IMG/VR virus record: IMGVR_UViG_3300001279_000002
Coordinates: 1-57,354 of that record
Length of the DNA stretch: 57,354 bases
Strand: one strand, 5' to 3'
Source of the DNA: a virus
Lineage: Duplodnaviria > Caudoviricetes
Shown: positions 2,228-33,403 of the stretch, in pieces
Position numbering within the stretch: the first letter of the stretch is position 1
Layout: every line of letters starts with the position of its first letter
Translations under genes and position numbers: made by a program
Notes under the pieces: generated by a model
The model's database searches: none
What the model saw: the letters and a program-made list of their open reading frames with translations, nothing else
Told to the model about the DNA's origin: nothing

Positions 2228-3172
2228 TTACGCCGCCGCCCACGACGCGGCGGCTATCCCCTTGTACAGGCCCGCGCTCGTGATAGACGCAGCGGCGTTT
2301 GCAGATAGGCCCGTAGCGTGTCCGGCGTAGACGCCCCAGCTAGACCCGTTTGTTGTGATGGATGAGTCGTCTGTGGTGAGCGCTATATCGCCAGTGATCA
2401 ATAACCCTGTTACCTCAAACGCAGACGCGCCACCAACAACTATGCCATTGGCTGGCACATTTAAGTTATACGGCGGGGCCTCTCCCGCCACAGAGGCGTG
2501 AGGAATTTCTGAGGCTAGCCCAGTAGCCGCGTAAACATAAACATCAGTTACTTGAGTGCTCCCCGTGTCCCCTATGGCTAGTGTCGCCGTCGCGCCGCTA
2601 GGATATGGGATGGTGAATATTGCTGGATAATTCCAGGTGTCCCCCCCATGAGCTCTAAGGGTGGCTGACGTCCCCCCAACCGTAAGAGAAGGATTTGGGG
2701 GGCGAGCGCCATGGTAAACTACTGTAATTATTAATATTCTGTCCGCTGAAGGTGTCCCAATGGCGACGTCGGCGATGGATATCGGCAAAACGGCAAGTGA
2801 TTGGCTTTTGCCAATATACGTCAGGACGCTCCCAGCGGCGGCAGTCCCTGTAAACGCGCCCGTTACCGTCGCCAGGGTCGCAGAAGAAGCCGCCTGCAGG
2901 CCGTCCGCCACGGTCAGCGCGCCCGTTACCGTCGCCAGGGTCGCAGAAGAAGCCGCCTGCAGGCCGTCCGCCACGGTCAGCGCGCCCGTTACCGTCGCCA
3001 GGGTCGCAGAAGAGGCTATATGCGAAGAGTTAATGGCGGTAAGCGCTCCCAGGATAGGCCCAAGCCAAGATGACTGCTCGCCCCCTGTGGACGATCCCCG
3101 GAAGCCTTCTAGGATAACGCTCCGTGCAGGCGCATGAACGGCGTTTCCCACAAAAGCATGCGCAACAGACAT
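2228..3172 (-). CDS. Putative fibre/spike-like structural protein with 21-aa tandem repeats
   Basis: 314 aa Ala/Thr/Gly-rich with repeated SSATLATVTGALTVADGLQAA. Confidence 0.55.
   Translation of the reverse strand: MSVAHAFVGNAVHAPARSVILEGFRGSSTGGEQSSWLGPILGALTAINSSHIASSATLATVTGALTVADGLQAASSATLATVTGALTVADGLQAASSATLATVTGAFTGTAAAGSVLTYIGKSQSLAVLPISIADVAIGTPSADRILIITVVYHGARPPNPSLTVGGTSATLRAHGGDTWNYPAIFTIPYPSGATATLAIGDTGSTQVTDVYVYAATGLASEIPHASVAGEAPPYNLNVPANGIVVGGASAFEVTGLLITGDIALTTDDSSITTNGSSWGVYAGHATGLSANAAASITSAGLYKGIAAASWAAA
2855..3013. repeat. 63-bp tandem repeat (~2.5 copies) inside CDS
   Basis: Units start at 2855, 2918, 2981 and are essentially identical at DNA level. Confidence 0.9.
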
Positions 3173-5651: not shown

Positions 5652-6059
5652 TTAAGCGTCGTTGTCAGGAACGTAGGAGATGACAATCACGGCTTCGCCG
5701 GTTGTCCCTGTCCCTACGTTGGTGACCATGGCGTAAACATCGGTGTCGGCGGCAAACGACAGGTCAGACCCGCGAAGGACGGTAGTCGCCCCTGTTGATC
5801 CTTCCGCGACGTCTGCGGCGGCCACAATGTCGTTATAGGTGGACGAATTCTCGCCGACTGTGAGAATGGGCGTCCCGCCCGCGAAAGCCGTCGTGATGTT
5901 CACCATCGCGCTCAAAATCTGCGCCCCTTTCGGGAGCGGATTCGGGAACTTAACCCCGGTCGCAATCCCAGAATCGGCGTAGGTGATTTTCTTGCGAAGG
6001 TAGTGAACTTGCTGTGTAGGCAGCTCACGAGCGGTAGTGCCAGCTGTGTTAGTAGTCAT
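5652..6059 (-). CDS. Putative capsid cement/decoration protein
   Basis: 135 aa jelly-roll-like (LPKGAQIL..V.ITTAF..GT..LTVG) immediately downstream of major capsid gene; GGGAGG RBS. Confidence 0.6.
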   Translation of the reverse strand: MTTNTAGTTARELPTQQVHYLRKKITYADSGIATGVKFPNPLPKGAQILSAMVNITTAFAGGTPILTVGENSSTYNDIVAAADVAEGSTGATTVLRGSDLSFAADTDVYAMVTNVGTGTTGEAVIVISYVPDNDA

Positions 6060-6071
6060 TCCGGCCCTCCC

Positions 6072-6747
6072 TTAGCTAGAAGCTGCGGCGTAGGTGTGGA
6101 TGGTGACAGTGCCAAAGTCGGCGCTGTTGAAGCGGGACTTCTTAAGACCCCAGATCGCCCAGCTGGATACTTCCAGCTTACGTTTGTGATCAAAGAGCTC
6201 CTCATTCCAGCGGTACTTCCCCTGTCCGGGGTTGTTCTGCTGGCCGTAAGCGATCATCGCAGCCTGGGCTCCAAGGAGCACAGCGCGGTGAACGGAAGTA
6301 AGGGCGAGGCTGGTAGACTCGCTGACGCCGGTTGCGACGTCCTGCGAAGAACGGAGAATCACCCCGTTATATTCGCCCAGAGCGCCGGTATAGATGGGAT
6401 TGTCAGTGACTTTACCGCCCATCATTGCGGCCTTCTGAATATCCATCCACTGCCCAGAAGAGGCGTTTGTGCGCATGGAGGTGACTTGATATGGATGCAA
6501 GTAGCAGACGTATTTAGGCTGTCCGCCAATCCGGATTGGCCGCACCATGTTGTTGCCAACTTTGGCAAGTTCCACAGCCTGATCAATCAAGTTCAAAGTG
6601 AACACGTCCGACGAAGTAAGACCGTCGTCAGTCGTGCCAGAGCCCGCCGTGATCTTACGCGTCGACGACGGCGCGACAGTAGCGTTAAGGCCCGTGTATT
6701 TAGTGTTGGTCTGCGCCGTATTGCCGCAAACCTGATTGAAAAAGCTG
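6072..6747 (-). CDS. Major capsid protein (N4-gp56/DUF4043-like), exon 2
   Basis: After splicing reads (I)SFFNQVCGNTAQ...YVCYLHPYQVTSMR...GALGEYNGVILR...RAVLLGAQAA...WGLKKSRFNSADFG; in frame with ORF 6072..6605. Confidence 0.88.
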
Positions 6748-7556
6748 CTTTACCTTCGCATCCGCGCGCTGGGCGAACACCGCTCTTTCGAGCTGCTCAT
6801 GGTTTCCCATGAGAGGAGATCATATCATCATCCGCTTTCGCGGAGCCGGGCGCTTCCAGCCGCTTGGCTGTACGGGGTCCCCCTGATCGTTGCGCCTTCC
6901 CTCGACTCGGCGATCCTTTACGAGGATTCCGCCGTTTTGCCGTTTGCCAAAGTTGCAATTATAACAAAGCACTTCAAGATCATCTCGCATACCATTCCGT
7001 AAGATATCTATGTACAGCCCTATGCCGAATTCACGATAGCCGTTTTCTTTTCTAAGCTTCCACCCATCATTATTTATATGATCGATGGTCAAAAACAGTC
7101 TTTCTCGTTCTCCGCAAGCTCTGCACTCATCGCCATACAAATCAAATACTTTATTTTTGATTCGCATGTATCTTACACGGTCTAACTCTTTTGCCCGTTG
7201 CCGCCGCTCTGGCGTCCACACAGCAAGAGGATTCTCTTGATACCGTTCCCGCGCTTTCTGGAGTCTTTCTACCTTATTTGCCTGATGGTGCGACTCAACC
7301 CTTTCGGTGTTGCACTCTTTGCACTCGTGGCGGCGGTAGCCTTTCTCTCGATTGTACACAGGGAACGTATTTAAAGGCTTCGTCTCATTGCACTTTTTAC
7401 AGATTCTGGTCATTAGGGCTCCTGGAGTTTTCTAACCACCAGAATTTCTAACCACCACAACCCCGACTGTCAAGGGCTTGGTTCAGGATTGCCGCCGTCT
7501 TTCACGCTGCGGTGTTCCCTGAGTTCACCCGGTTTAGAGTCCACCAGACTTAGTTA
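6748..7556 (-). mobile_element. Group I self-splicing intron (809 nt) in the major capsid gene
   Basis: P1: exon AGUCCAU pairs with IGS GUGGACU with a U.G pair at the splice site; P element GAACUCAGGGAAC; Q AAUCCUGAACCAAGC; R GCAACGAUCAG; S GAUGAUAUGAUCU; P3 CCGGGUG/CGCCCGG; GAAA-capped P9 hairpins; terminal G at 6748. Splicing restores the frame (AT|C = Ile) to give a 358-aa capsid protein. Confidence 0.93.
6820..7413 (-). CDS. Intron-encoded HNH homing endonuclease
   Basis: CxxC zinc knuckles, CRACGE..LTIDHINNDG...LEVLCYNCN; lies within the intron and its 3' end overlaps ribozyme core elements. Confidence 0.85.
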   Translation of the reverse strand: MTRICKKCNETKPLNTFPVYNREKGYRRHECKECNTERVESHHQANKVERLQKARERYQENPLAVWTPERRQRAKELDRVRYMRIKNKVFDLYGDECRACGERERLFLTIDHINNDGWKLRKENGYREFGIGLYIDILRNGMRDDLEVLCYNCNFGKRQNGGILVKDRRVEGRRNDQGDPVQPSGWKRPAPRKRMMI

Positions 7557-7957
7557 ATGGACTTTCTGTCGCTCCACCACTCGCCCAAAGCATCCTTGCT
7601 CTGCTGGCGGAGGTCGAACGGAACGCGCTGGGCGTCAATCGTGTTGTCCGAACGGACGCCGACGACGTGGCCGAGCTCGTTGATTGTGATGGCGTCGGAA
7701 TAGATCGAGAGCGATTCGCCGTTGCCTTCAGCGACTTCGCTTTCGCTTTTGCCTTCGCCAGTAAGACGAGCGCGAAGGCCAAAGGTGACCTTATCGCCCG
7801 GACCTTTCCGGGATTCGCTTTTGAGTTGGATAATCGAGTTATCCCCCTCACCGATCAAGGGAGCAATGTCCAAGTACTCGCGCTCTGCGACCGCAAGCAT
7901 TTTGCTCCATAGCTTGATCGCCATGGCGTCATTAACGCCAAACGATGTAGTTGCCAT
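7557..7957 (-). CDS. Major capsid protein (N4-gp56/DUF4043-like), exon 1
   Basis: MATTSFGVNDAMAIKLWSK...KGPGDKVTFGLRARLTGEG...AEGNGESL...QRVPFDLR..KDALGEWW. Confidence 0.88.
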
Positions 7958-8220
7958 AAAGGCCCCTTCAAGTAATGGGTGCAGTTATTATTTTGAGGAT
8001 TTGCGCGGTATCGCCAGCGCGGCGGATTTGGTCTTTAAGGCGGCCAAGAGCCCGGACTGCTCCTCTGTAACGGAGAGGCTCCGAACACCCATTTGTGAGC
8101 GCTGGGCGGGGCGCTTGCTGCGTTCCCTCGTTAGCGGAGAGGGGCCGAAATGAGACAAGCTCACGAAGAAAACGCTATCACGCGCGCGGTGGCTAAGCAA
8201 GTCCCCCGCGCGCCGTGGTT

Positions 8221-8877
8221 TTACTCGTTTTCGCGCGCGTCAACGACAAGAACGCCGCCGTTTCGACGCCTCCCATATTTGCAGTTGAAGCACAAAACTT
8301 GCAGCTCTGGCGGCATGCCCAGGCGGAGGATATCGAGATAGAGCCCGTTCCCGTCCGCGCGATAGCCGGGGACACGGACGAAATCACGCTCCGTGAAGTC
8401 GACGGGGACGACAGTCAGAAAATACGGGTTCGACTCCCCACATGCGACGCAGCCCCCGGCATAGCCAACAAGGCGGCGCAGAACTGCCATGGAATATGCA
8501 AGCTTCTCCCCCGCGCGCTCCCGGCGCGCCGCTTTCGCCGCGTCCGGATCGTAGCGTGCTCGCGCCTGGGCAAGCCGCGCCGCCATGTCCCCGGCGTGGT
8601 GCGCCTCAACGCGGGCCGTGTTGCAGACCCTGCAGGCGTGGCGGCGCATGCCGCTTTCGCCGCGCACGAAGGGAAACGCCTCAATAGGCTTGACCACTTT
8701 GCATTTTTTGCATTTTCGTTGCGCCTCCGCGATAAGCGCACAGGCTTTGCATGTGTGCCGCCTTTTCTGGGCGGCCCCGAAGTTGTAAATCGGGAACTCC
8801 GTTAACACCTTCTTTTTCTTACAGACTTTGCATCGCCGCTTGTTCGTCGCGTCGACGGCCGCGCTAATTTCGGACAC
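8221..8877 (-). CDS. Free-standing, probably inactive HNH-like protein paralogous to the intron endonuclease
   Basis: GTG start at 8877 after AAAGGGG; duplicated zinc-knuckle unit; C-terminus aligns with the intron HNH but LTIDH is LTVVP and CYNCN is CFNCK. Confidence 0.7.
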   Translation of the reverse strand: MSEISAAVDATNKRRCKVCKKKKVLTEFPIYNFGAAQKRRHTCKACALIAEAQRKCKKCKVVKPIEAFPFVRGESGMRRHACRVCNTARVEAHHAGDMAARLAQARARYDPDAAKAARRERAGEKLAYSMAVLRRLVGYAGGCVACGESNPYFLTVVPVDFTERDFVRVPGYRADGNGLYLDILRLGMPPELQVLCFNCKYGRRRNGGVLVVDARENE

Positions 8878-8887
8878 TTGGGGCCCC

Positions 8888-8944
8888 TTTCCGAAATTTT
8901 CAGGAGTTTTCCGATATTTTCCGAAGTTTTCCGATATTTTCCGA
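8888..8944. repeat. Six TTTTCCGA-like units at 10-bp period
   Basis: tttccgaaa ttttcaggag ttttccgata ttttccgaag ttttccgata ttttccga. Confidence 0.85.
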
Positions 8945-9034
8945 CGCGCGCCAGAAATTTGGCAACAAAAAAGCCCACGCAGACCTCTCGAAAGAGATTC
9001 GCATGGGCTTCTCACGCCCCCTCATCAAGAAGGA

Positions 9035-9472
9035 TTAGCTTGCCGGATTAGGCTCAACCGGAATCGGGTCAGCTGCGGGAGCGGGCTCAACCGGCGCAGA
9101 CGGCGCGGCCGGAGTGTTGGCCACGATCGCAGCCGCCAGGGCGTCAGACGACGCGCCCAGGGAGGCGACAAGCGCCTGAACCTGGGCGATATCCTCGGGA
9201 GTGGTCGCCGAAGCCAGAGCAGCGGCGATCTGTGCAGTAAGCGCCTGCAGAAGGCGGACAGCTGAATTTTCGACGTCGGTGTTGCGCTGTACGGCGCCAG
9301 TTAAAGCCTGGATATCGGCCTGCATAATAAGCTCCTTTATTGTTACGGTGTTTAACGCTGACAGGACCTGCACAAGCAGGCTTGACACTGCGTCCAGCTT
9401 GGATTCTATGCGGTTGAATCGTGTGGTGAACTCAACGCCAGGAATAGCCGTTACAGTGGAATTGCGAGACAT
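9035..9472 (-). CDS. Hypothetical coiled-coil Ala-rich protein
   Basis: 145 aa; RBS at start, plus a second AAGGAG RBS before internal MQADIQ. Confidence 0.6.
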   Translation of the reverse strand: MSRNSTVTAIPGVEFTTRFNRIESKLDAVSSLLVQVLSALNTVTIKELIMQADIQALTGAVQRNTDVENSAVRLLQALTAQIAAALASATTPEDIAQVQALVASLGASSDALAAAIVANTPAAPSAPVEPAPAADPIPVEPNPAS

Positions 9473-9697
9473 GCAAGGGGCTCCTGTTTGAGGGACAGCG
9501 AGCGGGGCGCGACTCCCGCGATGGGCCTAGATTCCCGGCATGGCCGGTAGTTCCTTATCAATAGCGTGTCTGCTTCCACGCCGTCGCCGTCTGCGGAGGC
9601 CCTCCATAGAAGGGGCTTCGAAGGCGGCGCAGCTCCCCGGAAGACAAAAAACAGGAAGCTGCAGCCCTCACGGAACGCGAAACGAATCCGCGTCGCC

Positions 9698-10516
9698 TTA
9701 TCGTATCCCGCCATATATCAGGGGGAGGCTTGTTTTTGTTGCCAGCACCTCTATTTTTTCGCGCGTCGCTGCGAGAACGATGGGTTCCAAGCGGTGAAAT
9801 TTGACTTCAAAACTCAGTTTACTATTTGTGATTCTATACCGGAAAAGCAAGGACAAATCAAAGGTCTCTCCCCCCTCAAAGAGGGGAATGCGGATAACCA
9901 CGGCCTTAGGCACGACGATGTTTTTACCGTTCGACGACGGGCTGTCCTCCTCAAGGCATGTAAGCTGTGTGCAGCCGTTCGACAGCTTTATTTTGCTTTT
10001 TATGGACGATACGCGCGTCACGCTAAGATCGTTGACGAGTTCCGCCAGCGTCGCCGCGTCTGGGCTAATAACGTCCGCTCCGTTCTCCTCCAAAAACTCT
10101 GCAAATGCGTCCTGCCCAAGGAGCCTATTGTTGATTAGGCTCCAGACTAAGAACGAAGGCGACGGCTCAAACTCGTAACGAACTTTATGCTCTCCGCGCC
10201 CAACGCCACTAGGCCCAGATTCGCTGCTGTGGTAGTCGAGAACCGCGATTACCGACCCAGACTGCCCTGTGCGCCCAAAGATCATTGACCGCTCAAGGCT
10301 CTTAAAGGCGTCGACGTAGCGGATAAACGATTCGTCTGTGTCGACGTCGATGGTCTGAGAGATAAATTCCTTCTGGAGCAACACCTTGGGCAAGGTCTGC
10401 AACGTCGTCCCCTCCGGGACGGGGACGACAATGTCTCCGTTATCCCGGCGAATGGGAGCCACGAGCGTTTTTCCCGTTTCGAGTAACAGTCTGATCTGAT
10501 CTGCGGATATGTCCAT
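9698..10516 (-). CDS. DUF2303 (YfdQ-like) family protein
   Basis: ESFIRYV...AVLDYH...QDAFAEFLEEN...IPLFEGG...FRYRI; start refined to MDISAD after AGGAG. Confidence 0.75.
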   Translation of the reverse strand: MDISADQIRLLLETGKTLVAPIRRDNGDIVVPVPEGTTLQTLPKVLLQKEFISQTIDVDTDESFIRYVDAFKSLERSMIFGRTGQSGSVIAVLDYHSSESGPSGVGRGEHKVRYEFEPSPSFLVWSLINNRLLGQDAFAEFLEENGADVISPDAATLAELVNDLSVTRVSSIKSKIKLSNGCTQLTCLEEDSPSSNGKNIVVPKAVVIRIPLFEGGETFDLSLLFRYRITNSKLSFEVKFHRLEPIVLAATREKIEVLATKTSLPLIYGGIR

Positions 10517-10593
10517 GTGTGGGCGCTCCTGGGCGTAAGAAGGCGTGTTTTTACAAACTGGCGTATTGAATGCAGGGGTAAACCGAAAAGGCA

Positions 10594-10920
10594 TTAGTCC
10601 TTATGCAGCCGAACAGACGCCAGGGACGGGCGGTCTAAGTCAAGCCTCCCTTGTCTTGGGTCATTCCTGCCCAGGGAGTTATCATCTTGGACAAACATTA
10701 TCGTCGTTCCCCGCGCGGGGTCTGGGATAACGGCTTTGATTTTGGCGACAACCTGCACGGAGCCGTCTCCGTTAGGCGTTACTTCAATAGTAAGAGTCAA
10801 GGACCCCTTTTTATCAGTCGCCATAACGCCCTCAACCACACCAGCGAGACGACTGGTTAGATCGTCGACAACATTTCCGTGGTTTATTTCAGATAACACT
10901 TCAACAAATGATCTGGCCAT
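10594..10920 (-). CDS. Small conserved partner of DUF2303 protein (YfdP-like)
   Basis: KKGSLTLTIEV.P...L.RNDPRQ..L motif; usual neighbour of DUF2303. Confidence 0.65.
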   Translation of the reverse strand: MARSFVEVLSEINHGNVVDDLTSRLAGVVEGVMATDKKGSLTLTIEVTPNGDGSVQVVAKIKAVIPDPARGTTIMFVQDDNSLGRNDPRQGRLDLDRPSLASVRLHKD

Positions 10921-32669: not shown

Positions 32670-32744
32670 GTGATTTTGTAGCATAGGGGTAGTGCGGCGG
32701 ATTTGTAATCCGTGTCTGCGCCGGTTCGAGTCCGGTCAACCACC
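32670..32744 (+). tRNA. Degenerate tRNA-Thr(TGT)-like element
   Basis: D arm GCAT/GTGC, anticodon arm GCGGA-TTTGTAA-TCCGT, T arm GCCGG-TTCGAGT-CCGGT; acceptor stem mispaired, no CCA. Confidence 0.65.
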
Positions 32745-33318
32745 TTCATCCGTTCTGGAGCGTCGAGGCCCGAAAATCTTGTGTTTCAAACAATTTTTCA
32801 ACCGCCTCGGCGCCTCAGAAACCCGGTTTATGGAATGCCGCCCGGAGACGAATGAGCACGGCTCCAGTAGTCTCGCCAGGGTTAACCGCTCCCCTCCGTC
32901 TCATGGGGAAACGGATGAAGCATAGACGGTGACAGCGCGGAAAGACGGCCCGGATTTAAAAGTTTCCTCCCCGGCGCAAGGTGCGCCACTCGATGCGCGA
33001 TCACGCATTTGAAGGGCCGGTTAAACTCCGTGGGGGAGGGCCAAGTTCCGGTAGCCTCCTGGATTTGAAACCCTCGGGGCACGCTAAAACCGGCGCCGCC
33101 CTGTTAGCGTGGGGCGGCGATAAATTAAAGCGTCGGCGAATGCCCAGGAAACTACATTTGGTATGACGTTTCCGAATCACTTGTCGCCGACGCCTTCGAA
33201 TGCCTGCCCCAGGAAGTAAGCACGGGGTTTCAAAGCTGTCTGCCGGGTCTCAGCCGCCTTGAAACCACCACGCGACAGGGGAGCCCGCGCAGAGGCTTCT
33301 GTAAATATCTGCGCATTT

Positions 33319-33403
33319 TGGCTGGTGGCGTAGCGGTTCCGCATTTCCCGTTCGGCCACAACGAATCGGAAAGACGCAGGTTCGAATCCTGCCCAGCCAA
33401 CTA
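33319..33403 (+). tRNA. tRNA-like element with elongated anticodon arm
   Basis: Acceptor TGGCTGG/CCAGCCA, D arm, T arm GCAGG-TTCGAAT-CCTGC; anticodon stem ~11 bp with loop GCCACAA; ends A-CTA. Confidence 0.7.

Follow-up and report, generated by a model that had tools for sequence, protein, structure and literature searches.

The window analysed here is the complete IMG/VR viral record IMGVR_UViG_3300001279_000002, a linear, metagenome-assembled stretch of 57,354 base pairs (bp) that is incomplete (CheckV completeness 54%). On its minus strand, on which all features of the locus lie, the frame of a major capsid gene is interrupted between the second and third bases of codon 134 and continues 809 nucleotides (nt) further on. 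The intervening insert (7556..6748) carries an open reading frame (ORF) for a putative HNH nuclease and has the makings of a group I intron. Exon 1 of the capsid gene (7957..7557, 401 nt) comprises codons 1–133 and two nt of codon 134. Exon 2 (6747..6072, 676 nt including the stop codon) begins C|AGC UUU UUC.

Both exons are recognizable as parts of one capsid protein. The exon-1 ORF (7957..7550) matches the Pfam family PF13252 (Phage_capsid_3) at profile positions 2–126 (E = 2.1e-28), and the exon-2 frame, read from 6746, matches positions 129–375 of 376 (E = 3.8e-52). The PHROG family phrog_334, ‘major head protein’, is also matched by both pieces. Joined, the exons give a full-length colinear PF13252 match. 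The intron-less capsid protein of Rhizobium phage RHph_Y1_10 is 59% and 56% identical to the two pieces, which abut on it with zero residues gained or lost (..DRKSI|SFFNQVCG.. in the window, ..DRLSM|MFFMQVGG.. in the Rhizobium phage). Splicing after T7557 and before C6747 would restore the frame to give ..RKS-I-SFFNQVCG.., and the spliced coding sequence (CDS) of 401 + 676 nt corresponds to 358 codons plus a stop. The unspliced exon-1 frame ends at an in-frame TAA (7552..7550) two codons past the 5' splice site. Exon 2 lacks a start codon at its beginning, the earliest listed start in frame being a GTG at 6605, 47 codons in.

An initial annotation, made from the sequence alone, had proposed this splice, the TAA behind the 5' splice site and the dependence of capsid synthesis on splicing. 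Its coordinates and junction are exact, since the capsid pieces are colinear, the CDS adds up to 401 + 676 nt and the TAA lies where it was placed; the dependence on splicing is supported. It had also suggested comparing homologous capsids across the junction, and these are colinear, with PF13252 running through positions 2–126 and then 129–375. At this locus, gene callers will list a capsid fragment of 135 residues, a gene for an HNH protein and a capsid protein without its N-terminal part; the true product would be the 358-residue capsid protein made from spliced RNA.

The insert can be folded as an IA2-like group I intron of 809 nt. It begins UAACUAAG.. and ends ..GGUAAAG, with the terminal guanosine G6748 directly before exon 2; this boundary is set to the base by intron-less DNA (see below). 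The last 7 nt of exon 1, AGUCCAU (7563..7557), provide the 5' strand of P1 and pair with GUGGACU (7544..7538) of the internal guide (7547..7538). The splice-site wobble pair typical of group I introns is present as U7557.G7544. A P10 helix is possible between CUG (7547..7545) and the CAG at the start of exon 2.

The 5' half of the core (7532..7474), as delimited by nhmmer and family pair counts, opens with the P3 5' strand CCGGGUG (7532..7526), followed by J3/4, P4 (7522..7517 with 7488..7483), P5/P5a (7512..7492) and the 5' strands of P6 (7481..7480) and P6a (7476..7474). The 3' half (6901..6755) was placed by nhmmer, covariation and identity to an intron of Ralstonia phage BOESR1. It contains P6a'/P6' (6901..6895), P7 (5' strand GAUCA, 6888..6884; 3' strand UGAUC, 6822..6818), P7.1 (6883..6874), a GUA linker (6873..6871), P7.2 (6870..6857), the P3 3' strand CGCCCGG (6852..6846), P8 (6844..6831), J8/7 with the sequence UGAUGAUA (6830..6823), P9 (6813..6796), P9.1 (6793..6782) and P9.2 (6777..6755). 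The core is complete from P3 to P9.2 and includes the P3/P7 pseudoknot, while P2 is absent. P7.1 and P7.2 lie between P7 and P3' and are linked by G-U-A, as is characteristic of subgroup IA2. All of the defined pairs (66/66) are standard. The GC content of the intron is 0.498 compared with 0.581 for the record. The P6a loop also contains a 13-nt direct repeat, UGGUGGUUAGAAA, with copies at 7457..7445 and 7441..7429, just upstream of the ribosome-binding site of the ORF. The copies are 16 nt apart, and the C in front of them together with their first bases gives CUGGUGG, which is also found in the internal guide region.

A gapped pattern of the P3–P6 core matched more than 115 IMG/VR contigs, a lower bound for the family. 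For the family alignment, 49 non-redundant ORF-less members were picked from 78 with a perfectly complementary P7 and aligned with the window; inserts of more than 40 nt, near-duplicates and two rows of more than 400 nt were dropped. Profiles built without the window row gave one nhmmer match each in the 57 kb, at 7536..7473 (E = 6.4e-12) and 6901..6755 (E = 9e-20). Across the 50 sequences, 79.7% of the cells were paired compared with 33–43% when the partners were slid, and the covariation score was 0.365 compared with at most 0.112 for the slid controls, a value reached by none of 500 shuffles (0/500); the structure tested had been taken from the window row, a choice that gives it an advantage over the slid controls.

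Support in this alignment differed between helices. Pairs in which both partners had changed numbered four in P3 (99.7% paired), two in P7 (100% paired) and five in P7.2 (87% paired). P4 was invariant, and support was good for P5, P7.2, P9 and P9.1. It was poor for P1, P7.1 (columns 24.5–84% paired), P8 and P9.2, in part because these regions align badly between introns of different host genes. Conservation of at least 90% among the other 49 rows is seen in 77 columns, of which the window retains 72. Its five deviations affect the two partners of a P7 pair, which compensate each other, the two partners of the outer P6 pair, and a single base in the P9.2 loop.

The P7 strands could be resolved by regular expression in 96 of the 121 pattern matches listed. 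The commonest form was GACUA/UAGUC (66), followed by GACCA/UGGUC (13) and GAUCA/UGAUC (5); among the matches listed, the last is carried by the window and by loci L081, L138, L141 and L142. The remaining 12 of the 96 strings are non-complementary and appear to be misplacements by the regular expression, except for one GACCA/UAGUC. The GAUCA/UGAUC form of the window had been taken initially as a compensatory change suggesting an active ribozyme. The change is real and recurs in five family members, but activity is not shown by the P7 change itself; as judged from the aligned sequences, it supports a conserved helix rather than activity as such.

Contigs of four public metagenome runs were aligned to 5900..8300. 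Run X4 yielded a 153-nt DNA contig (depth 2.9) in which 6747 is joined directly to the end of exon 1, with an unambiguous cut position; the last 17 exon-1 letters of this contig are a synonymous variant. The same run also has intron-plus contigs identical to the window. A different sample, run X5, yielded a contig of 1312 nt (depth 17.8; 32 substitutions) that extends from exon 1 through the intron into exon 2. Intron-plus and intron-less alleles are thus both found in nature, and the junction of the latter lies exactly at the predicted ligation point.

These contigs also bear on the idea that the locus is an assembly chimera, in which a capsid gene was joined to unrelated intron-bearing DNA. 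That the record is metagenome-assembled and little more than half complete speaks for such an accident. Nevertheless, the X5 contig is independent and runs through the entire arrangement, both junction regions are covered in other runs, and the boundaries match the frame-restoring splice to the base. A chimera is scarcely credible.

Homologous capsid loci were compared in a set of 81, consisting of 80 IMG/VR loci and RHph_Y1_10. The codon-134 site is uninterrupted in 80 of them, the sole exception being L081, and with both alleles found in run X4 the distribution of the intron is sporadic. Locus L005, with 92% amino acid identity in the capsid, is uninterrupted and its DNA reads through ..AAGTCCAT|GTCTTTC... 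While the capsid proteins of the window and L005 are about 91–92% identical, the genes flanking them (window 5652..10920) are only about 42–56% identical, a contrast that on sequence grounds suggests either mosaic exchange or much stronger conservation of the capsid gene.

L081 contains an ORF-less insert of about 250 nt (2753–3001) in the same codon. With the Rfam group I model RF00028 it reaches 57.2 bits, which exceeds the gathering score (50), and over the aligned positions its identity to the window intron is 74%. The two introns share the insertion point, the P7 form GAUCA/UGAUC and the lack of P2, and their P1 strands covary (AGUCCAU/GUGGACU in the window, UGUCCGU/GCGGACA in L081). Unlike the window intron, that of L081 has no endonuclease ORF, and its P6a is a 6-bp hairpin with a GAAA loop; the L081 capsid gene differs further in having a second intron downstream. 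The L081 intron at codon 134 appears to end ..AUAAACA and not ..AUAAAG, as the only frame-restoring 3' boundary follows an A, where a group I intron should have a G. The copy could be defective, the contig could contain an error, or the 3' splice site could be an unusual one.

Overall, three of the 81 homologous capsid genes contain introns, five in all (two in L078, two in L081 and one in L073), with RF00028 scores of 27 to 79 bits; the five are distributed over about four sites (near residues 91, 134, 219 and 318). The intron sites in PF13252-like capsids are near residue 91, at residue 134 as in the window, at about 219 and at about 310–318. The introns of L078 and L073 carry related HNH ORFs at the same P6a position. 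Relatives of the 3' core were also seen at L003:6735-7367, with a LAGLIDADG ORF, before a capsid-like ORF downstream of portal and scaffold-like genes, and at L004:1-1450, with a 301-residue ORF, just before a tape-measure-like gene of 2459 residues.

The ORF of the window intron (7413..6820) is located in the P6a loop and encodes a putative homing endonuclease of 197 residues of the HNH (endonuclease VII-like) type. It has its own Shine–Dalgarno sequence, AGGAG at 7423..7419, five nt before the ATG. The product matches the PHROG families phrog_1035 (endonuclease VII; E = 6.3e-15) and phrog_2255 (HNH; E = 8.4e-15). The motif CRAC ... TIDHINNDG ... CYNCN, containing the catalytic DH, an N downstream of it and two CxxC pairs as zinc ligands, the second within CxxCN, occurs in it and in the intronic ORFs of L078 and L073, to which the protein is 37% and 31% identical, respectively. 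Homologues were found by tblastn in 33 phage records (24–47% identity), mostly annotated as HNH endonuclease or endonuclease VII. In the protein Atlas, matches were confined to unnamed viral clusters; the nearest named cluster, with a score of 0.93, has PF01844 HNH in 15% of its members.

The last approximately 28 codons of the ORF span P6a', P6', P7, P7.1, P7.2, P3', P8 and J8/7, so that the ribozyme core is read in frame, and the P7 3' strand begins with the UGA (6822..6820) that terminates the ORF. In variants from runs X4, X5 and X6, two extra bases in the P7.1 loop put the C-terminal tail of the ORF in another frame, and the tail is therefore not under protein-level constraint. The GC content of the ORF is 0.481, compared with 0.591 for a paralogous gene upstream.

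Based on these data, we estimate a probability of about 90% that the insert 7556..6748 is a mobile IA2-type phage group I intron with an HNH gene, residing in the major capsid gene of a tailed phage that is uncultivated. The ribozyme core, the family profiles, the PHROG matches and the intron-less alleles agree with the initial annotation on the nature of the insert and on its exact boundaries.

Besides the derivation of the tested structure from the window row, several observations weigh against this interpretation. A local E-value run of RF00028 on the insert gave 13.8 bits (E = 3.1), below the gathering score, and runs on the whole window and on the record, at the gathering threshold and by E-value, found no group I match. 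The score is this low because the model pays for the approximately 590-nt ORF. RF00028 places the ORF in P8, which comparison with the ORF-less relatives shows to be wrong, its position being the P6a loop. A generic group I model had been suggested at the outset as a check: the window itself falls below the threshold, and the ORF-less homologue at the same site in L081 passes it.

For the nuclease, Pfam at E ≤ 0.1 returned no HNH family (only DUF6510 at 0.0079, below the cut-off), NCBIfam at E ≤ 1 returned no family, and a PDB sequence search gave 0 matches at E ≤ 1. An AlphaFold2 model of the protein was mediocre (predicted local distance difference test score, pLDDT, 70.7). Foldseek found 0 matches to it at E ≤ 0.001, the top three being the Gme HNH nicking endonuclease with weak E values of 0.09–0.2. 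VIA-align gave a best Z of 3.6, with many HNH domains at a weak Z of 2.5–3.5 over residues of about 78–175. Two features of the RNA also belong here. The P7.1 loop (near plus-strand position 6877) lacks two bases that the X4, X5 and X6 variants have and with which P7.1 becomes a 4-bp stem capped by a GNRA-type loop. At the outer pair of P6, the window alone has an unpaired A.C, the other 49 family rows having G.U or A-U. Finally, none of the listed runs holding the stretch is an RNA run; the junction is known at the DNA level only, and for this reason we infer splicing.

The silence of Rfam on the window and the presence of a Shine–Dalgarno sequence before the nuclease ORF would fit a locus that has no intron, in which a free-standing nuclease gene sits in the capsid gene and two separately made capsid polypeptides assemble. 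Such a split gene would require exon 2 to be translated on its own, but it has no start at its beginning, and the GTG at 6605 lies well inside it. Moreover, the sequences on either side of the ORF match the profiles of the ribozyme family and covary, and the ORF-less version in L081 exceeds the Rfam threshold at the same site. We consider a split gene highly improbable. An intein was also considered and was ruled out by the in-frame stops after the junction and by the ribozyme core.

Some of the above observations would also suit a genuine group I intron by descent that is decaying, with impaired splicing, an inactive nuclease or both, and persists as a fixed passenger. The outer P6 mismatch is found in the window alone, the shortened P7.1 loop alters the C-terminal frame of the ORF as well, and Pfam and NCBIfam do not recognize the nuclease. 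The apparent loss of the terminal G from the sister intron of L081 indicates that members at the codon-134 site can carry defects. Nevertheless, near-identical intron-plus contigs occur in several samples, the conserved core columns are largely kept (72/77), all catalytic-core helices pair, and the HNH motif residues are intact, unlike those of the upstream paralogue. In addition, the capsid protein is essential, so that an intron that did not splice would be lethal. Decay is accordingly rated as unlikely.

As a mobile intron, the element is predicted to act as follows. The late capsid transcript would fold, and free guanosine bound in P7 would attack after U7557. The freed 3'-OH of exon 1, aligned by P10, would then attack after G6748, ligating the exons into the 358-codon capsid mRNA. 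The in-frame TAA just inside the intron would halt ribosomes, which we propose allows the core to fold; unspliced RNA would yield only the 135-residue fragment. The HNH protein would be translated from the precursor or from the excised intron RNA and may nick or cut, near ..AAGUCCAU|.., the intron-less capsid alleles of relatives infecting the same cell. With the intron-plus copy as the template for repair, the intron would spread by homing. As the ORF runs through P7 and stops in its 3' strand, one RNA molecule should not be able to serve as nuclease message and as folded ribozyme at the same time.

Directly upstream of the capsid gene, a free-standing HNH paralogue (9015..8221) encodes 264 residues that are 39% identical to the intron HNH protein (E = 1e-32). 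Its catalytic DH is replaced by VP and its CxxCN by CxxCK, and the N-terminal CxxC...RRHxCxxCN module is present twice. With a GC content of 0.591, the gene is genome-like. A tblastn search of the paralogue against the 81 other capsid loci found no counterpart, the only match being the intronic HNH ORF of L078, with 25% identity. It is doubtful, although conceivable, that this gene is a domesticated DNA-binding derivative, or a relic of a free-standing nuclease whose first target was this capsid gene and from which the intron-borne copy was later derived. A domesticated protein might serve to mark or protect the capsid region subject to homing, or it might act as a regulator of late expression. 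If the relic reading were true, the genome would hold a snapshot of the route by which a free-standing nuclease invades an ORF-less intron; the ORF-less L081 intron, located in the same codon, would then stand for an earlier stage of it.

The initial annotation had described a capsid gene as an uncommon location for a phage group I intron. This was not borne out, either by published capsid introns or by the family itself. ORFs running into the 5' side of 120 family matches listed were collected as candidate upstream exons; 84 of them had at least 60 codons, and the other 36 were dropped. This sample is defined by the core pattern (matches listed L085-L199), and the family counts may overlap per member. 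Among these 84 peptides, the capsid matches in Pfam were SU10_MCP (13), Phage_capsid_3 (8), Phage_capsid_4 (6), Phage_capsid_2 (4) and Phage_capsid (1). The other matches were DNA_pol_A (11), GIY-YIG (13), RNA_pol (1) and Photo_RC (psbA-type; 1), the 13 GIY-YIG peptides being nuclease ORFs and not host genes. Capsid families are the commonest identifiable upstream exon in this sample, with 32 matches against 11 for DNA_pol_A, which suggests that for this IA2 subfamily a capsid gene is no less frequent a location than a DNA polymerase gene. In 13 deposited phage records with a similar 3' core, none of the cores was annotated as lying in a capsid gene; they were located within or beside genes for polymerase, primase/helicase or HNH proteins, or in gaps without annotation.

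Published cases are in line with the sample. Pope et al. (PMC3706429) describe an intron with an endonuclease gene in the capsid gene of mycobacteriophage LittleE, with splicing demonstrated by reverse transcription PCR, and cite a capsid intron in lactococcal phage Tuc2009. For crAss-like phages of the Delta and Zeta groups, Yutin et al. (PMC7886860) name the major capsid protein (MCP) among the typical intron hosts. According to Selles Vidal et al. (PMC11835236), over half of the viral group I introns are of type IA2.

Elsewhere in the window, two transfer RNA (tRNA) genes were found on the plus strand within 32676..33400 (41.7 and 43.3 bits), the second of which has a long variable arm. Between them, at 33133..33193, is a weak YrlA/Y RNA-like match (30.7 bits, below the gathering score of 69).

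The sample of upstream exons corrects the textbook impression behind the word uncommon and is in keeping with the view that the phage sequences targeted by homing nucleases are the most conserved ones. The present case adds one well-delimited member to the known capsid-gene introns, with both alleles in the same environmental sample and an ORF-less sister intron at the same codon. It raises no new question, lends itself well to teaching and might serve to study how nucleases invade introns.

Among characterized systems, the intron of the phage Pf-WMP3 DNA polymerase gene is close to that of the window. Kong et al. (PMC3428280) report that it self-splices and assign it to IA2 by the absence of P2 and the presence of P7.1-GUA-P7.2. 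As described there, it shares with the window intron these two features, a short P10 and residence in a conserved phage protein gene, and its HNH ORF likewise begins in P6a and spans P7. The host gene is a DNA polymerase gene there and a capsid gene here, and the splicing and nicking established by experiment for Pf-WMP3 are predicted from sequence for the window.

The intron at 2846..3069 of Ralstonia phage BOESR1 (L002, OR367448) scores 91.4 bits with RF00028 and belongs to the same family. It is approximately 80% identical to the window over 70 nt (6865..6796, covering P3'-P8-J8/7-P7'-P9), and the helices of the two are alignable, with compensatory changes in P3, P5 and P7. Unlike the window intron, it has P2, carries no ORF, has the P7 form GACUA/UAGUC and lies in a DNA polymerase gene. 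In the deposited BOESR1 record, two ‘DNA polymerase’ CDS are annotated and the group I intron between them is unannotated.

With regard to host gene, LittleE and the crAss-like phages offer the parallels. As described by Pope et al. (PMC3706429), the LittleE intron lies in the major capsid gene, carries an endonuclease gene and is present in only some close relatives, as in the window; the likeness is one of description only. Its nuclease is LAGLIDADG-related and is transcribed leftwards, opposite to the capsid gene, whereas that of the window is an HNH protein, and the capsid family and host phylum are different. The MCP introns of crAss-like phages (PMC7886860) were found via protein domains and not by a ribozyme model, and they belong to another phage order and capsid family. 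Like the window intron, they are described as group I introns with endonuclease domains in metagenome-assembled phages, and several may be present per gene.

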